Shown here: in pieces, positions 11,440 to 64,000 of the stretch
Position numbering within the stretch: the first letter of the stretch is position 1
Layout: each line of letters starts with the position of its first letter
Assembly: GCF_000027125.1 (NCBI RefSeq)
Contig: NC_017626.1
DNA from: Escherichia coli 042
GTDB lineage: Bacteria > Pseudomonadota > Gammaproteobacteria > Enterobacterales > Enterobacteriaceae
Strand: one strand, 5' to 3'
Length of the DNA stretch: 64,000 nucleotides
The notes under the pieces: model-generated
The model's input: only the letters and a program-made list of their open reading frames with translations
The model's database searches: none
Told to the model about the DNA's origin: nothing
Position numbers and translations under genes: made by a program

Positions 11440-12597
11440 TTATCTTGATGTTTTAGATATTGCTGGTCCGGCAGCACGCAAAGTTAACTGACGCCAGAGC
11501 CATTCCACCGGCCCCTGGCGGAAGTAACGCAGCCAGATAACAGAGAAGAGAATATTCGCCAGCCATACCGGAATAACAAACGCCAGCAATTCCAGACGGT
11601 CAAACTGCATAAACAAACCGAGGTGATAAAAAAGCGTGGTACAAATCAGCGTTTGCAATAGATAGTTGGTCAGCGCCATCCGTCCGACGCAGGCGATCGC
11701 AAGCACCAGCTTAAAGCGGCTCAATTGCGGCCAGAAGCCATAAAACAGCGACGCATAGCCAATCGCCTGAAACGGCGCACTCAGTTCCCGCGGCATTTGA
11801 AGTAAGAATGCACACCAGCGATACGCCCAGTCCAGTCGCCATTGCAGGGCGATGGCAGGAAGGTTAATGATCACCCCAATCGCCACCAGCACAAAACCAG
11901 TACGACGATAGTGACGTAAGCTGAACTGCCCTTTCAGCCAGCCGCTGCGCATCAGCGCCGCACCAATGAGCATCATCCCTGCCAGTTGCCAGCCATACTG
12001 TGCGCCCAGTGCCAGTAAACTGTTGCCAACACCGTCGGCACGATTACTGATCGCTTCAACGCCGCCGTGAAGCTTCCAGTATTTTTCATACAAAATAGCC
12101 GATGCATCCGGCGTCCAGGCGCGGCTGGTCTGGCTGTCGGAAATCAGCCCCAATAACATCAAAACGCCAAGCCCCACCAGATAAAGCATGACGCCTGTAT
12201 TAAACAGGCTTTTTACCGATGGCGCATCGCGCACCAGCCGCCAGCAGATTAAGCCCACCAGCCCGTAAGCCAGCAGAATATCGCCGTCCCAGAACAATAA
12301 ACCGTGAATAAAGCCCAGCAAGACTAACAGCGTTAACCGCGACTGGATCCAGCGTCTGCCACGGGGCAGCAACATTTGCAGGCCAGCACCAAACAGCAGC
12401 GCAAAAAGCGTGAGGAATTTCACCTGGCCGATGAGATCGAGAAATGCCCAGGTCCATGCATCCTGCGGCGTAATAGCGCCGTACCAGGCGGGATTGAGAT
12501 AAGCCGCCTTTGGTAGCCCAAAGGCGCTGATGTTTAATAGCAGGATCCCCAGAATGGCGACGCCGCGAACAAAATCGAGCGTGACGTTGCGCTCCAT
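11440..12597 (-). CDS. yeiB: DUF418-family inner-membrane protein
   Basis: 385-aa polytopic membrane ORF; synteny. Confidence 0.75.
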   Translation of the reverse strand: MERNVTLDFVRGVAILGILLLNISAFGLPKAAYLNPAWYGAITPQDAWTWAFLDLIGQVKFLTLFALLFGAGLQMLLPRGRRWIQSRLTLLVLLGFIHGLLFWDGDILLAYGLVGLICWRLVRDAPSVKSLFNTGVMLYLVGLGVLMLLGLISDSQTSRAWTPDASAILYEKYWKLHGGVEAISNRADGVGNSLLALGAQYGWQLAGMMLIGAALMRSGWLKGQFSLRHYRRTGFVLVAIGVIINLPAIALQWRLDWAYRWCAFLLQMPRELSAPFQAIGYASLFYGFWPQLSRFKLVLAIACVGRMALTNYLLQTLICTTLFYHLGLFMQFDRLELLAFVIPVWLANILFSVIWLRYFRQGPVEWLWRQLTLRAAGPAISKTSR

Positions 12598-62798: not shown

Positions 62799-62863
62799 TG
62801 GCAGTTCTGCATTATTTTTTGTGTTATTGAGTTGTAGAGCGTTTCAGGAGTTTTTTGAATCAC

Positions 62864-63064
62864 ATGAACGTTTCGCTGGTGGATATTCTTGACAAGTTGC
62901 AGCCAGGCCGACGCGTGCCAGCTCGCCGCAGTGCCTGGCATCTTCCGTACATCGTCTTTCTCGAACGGCGCGGAAACGATTTGATTGCGTTGAATCCCGT
63001 CACAAAGGATAGCGTTACGCTATCTCCTGAGAGTCTACTAGCCACAGACTGGGAGTACTGCTAA
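62864..63064 (+). CDS. hypothetical small protein
   Basis: 66-aa ORF from ATG 62864 (ORF track begins at TTG 62855); AGGAG upstream. Confidence 0.4.
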   Translation: MNVSLVDILDKLQPGRRVPARRSAWHLPYIVFLERRGNDLIALNPVTKDSVTLSPESLLATDWEYC

Positions 63065-63131
63065 ACACAAACGCATCGAGGGTGCTGGCGTGTTGCCAGC
63101 CCCACCCCCTCCGAAATGATCCCCCAAAAAG

Positions 63132-63349
63132 TGCAAAATGATCCCCCATTAACGAACAGAAAACAAACAAAGAGCAACAAATAATCATTATTTACAATTC
63201 TTGACAAAAACACCCCCTATTTATAACCCTACCAAATTTAAAATTACATCTACAAAACAATAAGTTACAAAATCAGCAACGGATCATTTCGGAAAAAACG
63301 GTTAGTCCCTTTTTCGAAAAGGGATCATTTTGTTGCTTAAACTCATATG
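63132..63349. promoter_or_regulatory. four GATC-containing 9-bp repeats (AAATGATCC) bracketing a promoter-like element
   Basis: Direct copies at 63132 and 63154 (22-bp spacing); inverted copies GGATCATTT at 63300 and 63341; second inverted copy abuts palindrome CCCTTTTtcgAAAAGGG. Confidence 0.5.
63220..63246 (+). promoter_or_regulatory. putative sigma70 promoter
   Basis: TTGACA (63220..63225), 15-bp spacer, TATAAC (63241..63246); no ORF downstream. Confidence 0.35.
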
Positions 63350-63597
63350 CGGATTACATATCAATACGCTAGTGATAGCCGTTCTGGAATGCCACAGAAA
63401 CGCGCTGTAATCGATTCTGGCGCAATTAGCTGTGCTAGGTAATGATTTACCTATCTGGGGATGTTGCGCACGTCTGGATTGCGTTACCACCGAAGATTGT
63501 GCGCATATGGTGGCTGTTACGGTGGCCTCCCGACAACGCAAAATTGCGGCGGCACAGTCGGTTTACCGCGCTAACACGGCTTGATTCACTCGCTCGA

Positions 63598-63742
63598 CTT
63601 GTCCCACCTCCCCCCCCAACTTGTCCCAAAACAGCCTAGACTTGTCCCACCTTACCTAATTTATTTCTAACAAAATCAATTTGTTAGGTGCTGGTGGGAC
63701 AGGTGGGACGGGTGGGACGGGTGGTTTTGTATATATATATAC
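63598..63742. repeat. second iteron cluster with the same core as the primase-proximal ori, plus a (TA)6 tract
   Basis: CTTGTCCCA x3 at 63598, 63620, 63641 (21-22-bp spacing); AT-rich spacer; tandem GGTGGGAC x3 at 63693, 63702, 63711 (9-bp period); GTATATATATATAC at 63729. Confidence 0.55.
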
Positions 63743-64000
63743 GAAAAATTGCATTCAGGAGGGGGGCGAAATTCCTGCAATCCATTACTTATGGAACTGT
63801 CCGCCCCGTCAAATTTTTACGCCCGCGCAATTAAAAAAATGCGTCACGCAGGTGGGCATGATGCCGATATGCTTGTCGGGTTCAGCTTTTTAAGGCGGCT
63901 GTAGATGTCAGGTTATCCGTGCTCATCCACCAGCCAGCTTCATAGCGGATAGCCGGAAAATGGTAACGGTTAAAGCTGTACATTTTTGCAGCAAATCATT

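Follow-up and report, generated by a model that had tools for sequence, protein, structure and literature searches.

The stretch at positions 63350-63597 of the window, a piece of Escherichia coli 042 DNA (NC_017626.1) of 64,000 nucleotides, is most probably a pseudogene remnant. It would be what is left of a 93-aa gene and of the hairpin box behind it, now spacer DNA in front of the second iteron cluster and the cos site, and we give this reading a probability of roughly 60%. The stretch shares homology with the family of the 93-aa gene, its two matching parts are collinear with the intact arrangement, and no intact copy of the gene is present in the island. Beyond spacing, the stretch would have no present function of its own, with possibly some residual hairpin activity. 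The initial annotation had described it as a repeat-rich and ORF-free segment that might encode a non-coding RNA or serve as a packaging site.

The last 8 kb of the window form a mobile island adjoining a tRNA-Pro gene (55837-55910). Judged by its sequence, the element is a minimal PICI-type phage satellite like EcCICFT073, with the features that mark Gram-negative PICIs: an integrase at a tRNA site, an AlpA-type regulator, a primase-replication gene with an iteron origin and a helper-type cos. Capsid, tail and lysis genes were not found in the island. A near-identical island exists in E. coli XJ6.1 (98.9% identity over the last 951 nt), from which the RefSeq gene annotation was taken. Its gene order is integrase, small HTH regulator, Icd-like, DUF4222, DUF927 primase-helicase, SSB, ProQ/FinO-family, PerC-family regulator and a 50-aa hypothetical protein, followed by chromosomal yejO. 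In the window island the HTH gene is AlpA-like, the C4 and IsrK RNAs are placed between HTH and the Icd-like gene, and a 69-aa ORF comes after PerC. The ProQ/FinO-family gene lies 0.9 kb upstream of the stretch. All cis-acting sites of the island are gathered at its right end, namely a GATC-flanked AT-rich block, the stretch itself, iteron cluster 2, a phiP27-type cos and a probable attR, a weak repeat of the tRNA 3' end about 90 nt past the window end. The features around the stretch are as follows.

58213-58401, IsrK and C4 antisense RNA (Rfam)
59145-61283, DUF927 primase-helicase gene
61302-61444, iteron cluster 1, directly 3' of the DUF927 primase-helicase gene
63110-63122 with 63281-63293, first pair of GATC-carrying perfect inverted repeats
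63136-63148 with 63321-63332, second pair of GATC-carrying perfect inverted repeats
63305-63325, terminator-like, bidirectional hairpin upstream of the stretch
63598-63724, iteron cluster 2: three copies of CTTGTCCCA, an AT-rich spacer and three copies of GGTGGGAC
63758-63837, + strand, cos-type packaging site, 79.5% identity over about 80 nt to the annotated phiP27 cos region
about 63798-63807, TGTCCGCCCC, equivalent of the 10-nt phiP27 cohesive end by alignment to phiP27

Several earlier observations on this region stand. Nearly 0.9 kb of non-coding DNA had been reported for the island end, and we found about 0.94 kb without a credible gene, from 63065 to the window end. The flanking features that had been named are real: the two pairs of GATC inverted repeats (63110-63332), which enclose 130 nt of AT-rich DNA, and the iterons (63598-63724). 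That the stretch belongs to the cis-acting sequences clustered where a mobile island ends is likewise supported, and two hairpin-forming elements in it are conserved elsewhere.

The stretch and its left border can be divided into the following parts, where type A is the kind of right end found in the window and type B is a sister lineage.

63346-63389, + strand, diverged left part, weakly homologous to type B
63390-63462, + strand, core of 72 nt, about 84% identity, common only to type B
63416-63439, + strand, hairpin H1, a 9-bp stem UCUGGCGCA/UGUGCUAGG with the loop AUUAGC; an outer 5-bp extension spans 63409-63447
63432-63584, + strand, 50-aa ORF, RefSeq hypothetical protein WP_014639248.1
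63473-63516, + strand, relic of the 93-aa gene, nt 78-121 (codons 26-40), found with a DNA profile
63517-63527, + strand, deletion junction, lacking about 172 nt of gene sequence (profile nt 122-293)
63528-63555, + strand, post-gene hairpin box, TCCCGACAACGCAAAATTGCGGCGGCAC, profile nt 294-321
63556-63597, lineage-specific flank of cluster 2, which matches nothing outside type A

The relic was recognised with a DNA profile of 43 distinct copies of the 93-aa gene together with 70 downstream bases. The match has 10.5 bits and an E value of 2.5e-5, and 33 of its 44 bases are identical with the consensus. None of 2000 dinucleotide shuffles reached this score (shuffle maximum 5.2 bits), so the match counts for a decayed gene. 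The two profile matches, relic and box, are collinear in the window and separated by 11 nt instead of 172 nt. Both are on the + strand just left of the origin/cos block, in the same order as in the related islands L040, L021, L059 and L061, and this shared order and orientation is a second argument for the same reading. A protein profile of the family finds the expected position in the frame of the 50-aa ORF without significance (E 0.22). The DNA is thus more similar (75%) than the protein, which is the pattern expected of a pseudogene. An intact gene was searched for in the window island by tblastn, and no match was obtained at E 1e-5.

About 1020 homologues of the 93-aa gene are contained in the databases; none has a name or a Pfam domain. 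EcCICFT073 has the gene as its last one, just after the lambda-like cos of that island. An intact copy sits close to the right end in most of the relatives retrieved, among them L098, L027-L031, L019-L021, L039, L040 and EcCICFT073, and is missing from the window island and from type B, a distribution which also counts for a relic; in L098, one of the islands with the intact gene, the primase-helicase is 93% identical. In type B islands the corresponding place holds scrambled fragments of the gene, independent of those in the window: nt 127-176 runs in the direct orientation (E 9e-14) and nt 197-250 is inverted (E 3e-7). These fragments favour the relic as well. The inverted fragment (L004 8952-9005; profile nt 197-250) abuts the start of the core, and the window has no such direct match there. 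The part of the stretch matched directly by the profile is 63473-63555, and 63346-63465 is linked to the gene only through type B and a by-eye resemblance of H1. This origin of the core from the gene-plus-box module was seen by eye while the profile is silent, which counts against reading the core itself as a relic.

These data can be put together in a simple history. In most relatives a module for packaging or cargo occupies the place between the PerC region and the origin/cos block, directly left of the latter, and ends in the 93-aa gene and its hairpin; the window lineage would have lost this module. The remains would be a 44-nt fragment of the 5' half of the gene, a deletion scar and a weakened box, and in addition an older rearranged copy, the 72-nt core with H1, common to one sister lineage. 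The island is visibly shrinking. For example, L015 is a natural deletion derivative, in which a truncated integrase gene is joined to about position 63375 and everything to the left is lost.

With regard to coding capacity, the earlier statement that the stretch has no credible ORF proved correct, as no ORF is conserved and the frames are broken in relatives. The 50-aa ORF is most likely a chance-open frame across gene debris. It is annotated in the closest carriers and not in more divergent ones, and in type B its frame ends after 15 codons. Indels of 1-2 nt at 63448/63449 break it in 6 of 13 sampled relatives (L011, L012, L013, L015, L017 and L108). This loss in about half of the copies, together with the L015 deletion, counts for the relic. 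Pfam gave no match for any of the 6 local ORFs, and PHROG gave one non-significant match (E 0.14).

A small protein gene, either the 50-aa ORF or a micro-ORF of 17-31 aa that ends at TAA 63440-63442 and overlaps the conserved core, is very hard to credit. It can draw on the RefSeq annotation in the closest carriers and, for the micro-ORF, on an in-frame ATG or GTG start and an identical stop position in types A and B. But besides the interrupted 50-aa frame, the 31-aa version gains a TGA (G63386T) in 7 of 13 copies and suffers a 1-nt deletion in L013 and L108. Every difference between A and B within the micro-ORF alters an amino acid and no Shine-Dalgarno sequence lies upstream (both by eye), and none of these ORFs has a significant protein-family match. 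The core micro-ORF, taken as 17-32 aa, was also tried as a diverged middle part of the 93-aa protein and rejected (tblastn E 8.4, not significant).

The proposed RNA gene found no support. At gathering thresholds, the Rfam matches in the window are C4, IsrK, tRNA and the L25 leader only, all outside the stretch. When 62800-64000 was searched with E values up to 10, nothing matched in 63350-63597, and the seven noise matches were all outside it. A consensus scan of both strands detected no promoter-like or terminator-like site inside the stretch. The folding energy of the whole stretch is ordinary compared with shuffles (z = -0.48 on the + strand and -1.28 on the - strand). The lack of an Rfam match, of a promoter or terminator and of unusual folding is a further point for a gene relic. 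A more stable fold than in shuffled sequence is seen in one segment of 80 nt that contains H1, 63370-63449 on the + strand (z -2.8 to -3.5); the homologous type B segments reach only -0.9 to -1.1.

It is highly improbable in view of these searches that an independent small RNA gene is transcribed from within the stretch, for instance as a partner of the ProQ/FinO protein of the island. The ProQ/FinO-family gene upstream would suit such an RNA, and by eye the core contains a weak minus-strand -35/-10-like pair directed at the bidirectional hairpin 63305-63325, but the consensus scan saw no promoter on either strand and the candidate terminator is unrecognisable in type B (by eye). Other sites considered in the core, namely a sigma-54 promoter, a PurR/LacI-type operator, DnaA boxes and a P2 Ogr/P4 Delta site (TGT-N12-ACA), were discarded by eye for misfits of spacing or sequence.

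The repeats ascribed to the stretch do not exceed chance, and the description as repeat-rich has to be dropped. The recurring TCTGG is indeed present in four copies (63383, 63416, 63454 and 63473), but it is at chance level and unconserved: 18% of dinucleotide shuffles of the region hold some 5-mer at least four times, and 0 of the 4 copies are kept in type B. The shuffles and the absent conservation rule out TCTGG as a repeated site. The other motif pair, TTGCGCAC/TGTGCGCA, does form an inverted repeat (63464-63471 and 63498-63505), yet it is not maintained in relatives, three of which have G63468A, a change that disrupts the pairing without compensation. Its right arm falls within the gene relic.

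To describe the distribution of the stretch, more than 150 related loci were compared. The 951-nt right end (type A) occurs in 103 of 5426 complete E. coli genomes and is always chromosomal. With the stretch alone as query, 42 further genomes (type B) were found, and the part in common is only query 61-131 (about 63390-63460), with 83-85% identity. With nhmmer, window 63346-63465 aligns to L004 8954-9076 (E 7.5e-11). Type B has the gene order of the window island, a primase-helicase that is about 90% identical except at the C-terminus, and the same cos; it differs in its iterons (TTTGCGGGTTAT) and in a cargo of three large unannotated genes. Genes of types A and B share 77-90% DNA identity, so the 84% of the core is at background level and gives no sign of special constraint. 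It is the flanks, not the core, that have been replaced between the two types. A third lineage was not found: scans of IMG/VR, of one genome per GTDB species and of JGI/ENA metagenomes with 18-20-mers of the core returned types A and B plus chance matches, and a “distant” BLAST search in E. coli genomes, with the type B sequence as query, added none. The core is in none of 80 loci with DUF927 relatives.

Among 13 type A copies, 2.7-7.4% of the sites vary in the stretch, compared with 6-7% in neighbouring genes and 12-14% in other non-coding blocks, in a small sample that is confounded by recombination. Only cos varies less than the core (2.7% of sites), which does have indels. That the stretch varies no more than the neighbouring genes, and less than other non-coding blocks, argues against freely decaying DNA. 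Conservation among related islands, which the initial annotation had expected of a functional stretch, is therefore partial: the 72-nt core is kept in one sister lineage and the box of about 25 nt is found widely, whereas the rest is a decayed gene fragment or lineage-specific.

Replication and packaging sites lie next to the stretch. Iteron cluster 2 mirrors cluster 1, and the same two-cluster layout is found in relatives with other iterons. In published PICI origins an AT-rich region lies between two iteron sets, on the 3' side of the gene for the replication initiator (PMC6092414). Copies of the iteron TGGGAC/GTCCCA are at 61312-61440 and 63601-63718, and none is within 63350-63597. The cos site starts 35 nt after cluster 2; in phiP27 (NC_003356) the corresponding region is located between the HNH endonuclease and small terminase genes, and 8 of 10 annotated bases of the phiP27 cohesive end are shared with the window island. 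When the right end of the island was compared by BLAST with phage and plasmid collections, the cos region was matched and the stretch never. The idea of a packaging site in the stretch thus finds no support, as the phiP27-like homology is at 63758-63837. A similarity search for cos/pac sites, as had been suggested, does reveal a packaging site nearby, but about 200 nt to the right and none inside. Nor does the core travel with cos, since L019-L022 carry cos without the core, and islands that share a cos can have wholly different DNA at the position of the stretch.

The stretch might still be an accessory part of replication or packaging, which supplies host-factor or initiator sites for cluster 2 or an upstream cos element. 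Its direct contact with cluster 2, with cos shortly after, would fit, as would the specificity of its right third (63556-63597) for the iteron type of the window and the conserved flank of about 65 nt which type B islands keep in front of their own cluster 2. We regard this as unlikely, because iteron copies are lacking inside the stretch, the phiP27 cos homology ends 160 nt to its right, L019, L021, L039 and L040, with the same cos or the iteron type of type B, carry unrelated DNA here, and L026 and L041 have both iteron clusters in tandem without any such stretch.

The hairpins are the part of the gene remnant for which some remaining activity may be considered. The 13-mer ACGCAAAATTGCG (63536-63548) of the box recurs in five other island types, in unrelated contexts and always in the same orientation, and elsewhere in the window its frequency is no higher than chance. 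The 19-nt pattern CCGAYRACGCAAAATTGCG was found in 55 IMG/VR contigs with at least 8 different downstream continuations. In intact islands a distance of 19-23 nt lies between the stop codon of the 93-aa gene and the start of the hairpin, which has a stem of 6-7 bp with an A/U-rich loop of four bases. Alternative stems at equal distance from the stop are GGCCCA/TGGGTT, AGTGCA/TGCACT, GGCTCA/TGAGCT and CTCCTCA/TGAGGAG. The exact box is absent from EcCICFT073, which has a different hairpin, TTCGCC-AGC-GGCGAA, at that place. In nine aligned forms, picked with a hairpin finder and hence leaning towards pairing in the covariation count, 5 of 7 pairs change on both sides, and 0 of 500 shuffles reach the covariation score. 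This co-varying post-gene hairpin lies mostly outside the stretch. The box of the window is weakened, with 4 of the usual 6-7 stem pairs kept and the two outer pairs lost.

The minimum-free-energy folds predicted for the window, L004 and L005 all include H1. When type A is compared with type B, one pair of H1 has changed in a compensatory way (G-C to A-U), three changes are compatible with wobble pairing, and 3 of 6 loop bases differ. Overall 98% of the cells are paired, and the covariation score, from 4 distinct sequences of 2 lineages, was matched by 86 of 500 shuffles and is not significant. The type B version of H1 (ACGCA-CTTAAT-TGCGT-TGG) resembles the canonical box (ACGCA-AAAT-TGCGT-TGG) by eye. 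The profile gave no signal here, but the likeness would make the core an older copy of the gene-end module that has been rearranged. The H1 pairing kept across lineages, the low variability of the core and the better-than-shuffled folding of 63370-63449 argue against pure debris.

There is a minor chance that H1 and the box are residual cis-acting hairpins that work in rightward transcripts or in single-stranded DNA. They could protect or process 3' ends, cause pausing or antitermination ahead of the origin/cos block, or be bound by an island protein, such as ProQ/FinO or the 93-aa protein of a co-resident island. Such activity would agree with the post-stop hairpin of many islands, whose stems differ and covary, with the H1 pairing retained in both types, with the low variation of the core within type A and with the ProQ/FinO-family protein encoded by the island. 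But the alignment behind the covariation is biased to pairing, the box of the window is without its two outer pairs, H1 is known from only two lineages, and neither hairpin is followed by a U-tract; no feeding promoter was found, and the terminator-like hairpin (63305-63325) stands upstream. In a wider and rather unlikely version, H1 and the box would belong to an undescribed family of conserved stem-loops, placed some 20 nt behind the terminal gene in many PICI-type satellites of enterobacteria. Their co-varying stems would act as RNA, e.g. as a processing, pausing or ProQ/FinO-binding signal controlling transcription into the origin/cos block, and selection would keep the “debris”.

PICIs that combine an iteron origin in two parts with a helper-type cos are an element type already known. 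EcCICFT073-type PICIs of E. coli were described by Fillol-Salom et al. in 2018 (PMC6092414) and 2019 (PMC6739421). The window island shares with EcCICFT073 the integrase, the AlpA-like regulator, Icd-like, DUF4222, SSB and PerC genes, an origin of two iteron sets around an AT-rich region just after the replication gene, and a cos copied from a helper phage type. Both have a primase-type replication gene, but from different protein families. EcCICFT073 ends with the intact 93-aa gene, whereas the window island holds only the relic. Unlike EcCICFT073, the window island lacks the capsid, decoration and Rpp (c1503) genes, has a second iteron cluster adjoining cos, and its cos is phiP27-like (the HNH-plus-terminase phage type) instead of lambda or phi80.

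In satellite phage P4 the alpha primase-helicase binds both ori and crr, a cis replication region at a distance from it. Like P4, the window island has two separated clusters of one iteron, one by the replication gene and one kilobases away, and it carries P4/P1-like C4 and IsrK RNAs and an Icd-like gene. Unlike P4, it is without sid, psu and delta, its primase-helicase is of the DUF927 kind and not alpha, and its cos is of phiP27 type and not P2 type; the stretch adjoins the second cluster without being part of it. In staphylococci, SaPIbov5 is the known case of a satellite with a cos taken over from its helper phage. The window island shares the cos region of about 80 nt at 63758-63837 with phiP27, and nothing in 63350-63597 resembles any phage cos. 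Since the island carries a phiP27-type cos, its transfer probably depends on cos phages of the HNH/P27 type.

Small RNA hairpins behind genes are represented by boxB of the lambda nut site and by the hairpins that stabilise mRNA 3' ends. The box has in common with these a short stem of 6-7 bp, an A/U-rich loop of 4 nt, a fixed distance past the stop and the maintained pairing. Unlike in nut, no boxA-like partner was recognised in the islands, and the copy in the window is degraded; we know of no N-like protein in these islands. Judged from its sequence, the box could equally well be an RNA hairpin or a palindromic protein-binding site. The co-varying hairpin after the 93-aa gene has no Rfam family, and no mention of it was found in the PICI papers that were consulted. 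The gene relic itself would be ordinary.

In conclusion, what looked like a hidden RNA gene or a packaging signal is probably the wreck of a small gene in a stripped-down satellite. The analysis also provides a usable map of the right end of this satellite, which runs from the regulatory block through the relic and the second iteron cluster to the phiP27-type cos and attR. Of some wider value may be the co-varying hairpin found behind the terminal gene in many related satellites.

The same iteron, TGGGACA/TGTCCCA, is found in two clusters in the island, and the second of them separates the stretch at 63350-63597 from the packaging site at the right end.

61302-61444: iteron cluster 1
63598-63724: iteron cluster 2
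63758-63837: cos-type packaging site, by similarity to the phiP27 cos
about 63798-63807: equivalent of the cohesive end, within the cos-type site

In each cluster, an AT-rich spacer lies between opposed sets of iterons. Cluster 1 is located directly downstream of the DUF927 primase-helicase gene, while cluster 2 is 2.2 kb off and adjoins cos. This two-cluster layout is kept in relatives with other iterons, and in two related loci, L026 and L041, the two clusters lie in tandem with each other. The cos-type site shares 79.5% identity with the cos region annotated in Stx phage phiP27; there, an HNH endonuclease gene is on one side of it and the small terminase gene on the other. Many other E. coli islands end on the right with the same cos block, which has a match in 509 of 5,426 genomes.

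Upstream of the stretch, perfect inverted repeats of 12-13 nt that each contain GATC and a palindromic hairpin were found.

63110-63122 / 63281-63293: first inverted-repeat pair with GATC
63136-63148 / 63321-63332: second inverted-repeat pair with GATC
63305-63325: hairpin TCCCTTTT-TCG-AAAAGGGA, overlapping one GATC site

The GATC repeats read AAATGATCC / GGATCATTT, and between them lies a 130-nt AT-rich stretch with a TTGACA hexamer. With opposed sites around a melting region, the block resembles an origin as much as a regulated promoter. It is among the most variable parts within the lineage (12.5% variable sites), and only iteron cluster 2 is higher (14.3%). On the + strand the hairpin was marked as terminator-like; on the - strand, too, a T-run follows it. 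Its stem carries uncompensated mismatches in relatives.

Another hairpin is found 3' of the 93-aa gene, which is the terminal gene of many PICI-type islands.

L059 9631-9700; L061 8012-8100; L176 8656-8700; and 50+ IMG/VR loci (L122-L175): hairpin 3' of the 93-aa gene in related loci

It has a 6-7 bp stem with an A/U-rich tetraloop and begins 19-23 nt past the stop codon, and its pairing is kept although the stems vary from island to island. The block upstream of it, which reads TATCAGCAAGTTA on the reverse strand, matches the IHF consensus by eye. The gene and its hairpin are also terminal in L148 (an IMG/VR contig of 54.7 kb), a lambda-type capsid-encoding satellite, where a lambda-like portal gene is represented by its C-terminal part about 0.8 kb past them. 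L148 may represent either a satellite integrated into a late gene of a helper or a chimera produced by assembly.

In E. coli EC21Z-063 (L015 2528-3226), the island occurs as a natural deletion derivative. Its truncated integrase gene abuts the position equivalent to about 63375, and only the core shared with the sister type B lineage, the relic of the 93-aa gene, iteron cluster 2, cos and attR are retained. In other islands with the same cos, the position of the core is taken by a different non-coding block, conserved and about 210 nt long, which we call module X.

L022 5795-6000; L019 5520-5735; L040 about 12270-12480: module X in related loci

Module X contains a hairpin, GGTCGCACC...GGTGCGATC, and what may be a small ORF, APFSGEGAIMFVIPVPLKRNTPFRRSWWTHSHI. 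Rfam gave no match for the module.

Besides, one further ORF and two RNAs were found in the window island.

62855-63064, + strand: 69-aa ORF 3' of the PerC gene, matching phrog_7206 (E 1.3e-6)
58213-58289, + strand: IsrK (52.9 bits)
58314-58401, + strand: C4 antisense RNA (77.7 bits)

For the 69-aa ORF, RefSeq has an annotation in some carriers (e.g. WP_156629376.1), but E. coli XJ6.1 has none. IsrK and the C4 antisense RNA are adjacent, with a regulator gene on one side and an Icd-like gene on the other, the same immunity-RNA arrangement as in P1/P4, but housed in an island of the PICI type.

Type B islands carry four unannotated cargo genes of 843, 686, 918 and 104 aa (L004 879-8540 in E. 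coli Ec-RL2-1X; L005 684-8345), placed after a 68-aa ORF and before the right-end block. These genes are candidates for an accessory or defence module located in a satellite hotspot.
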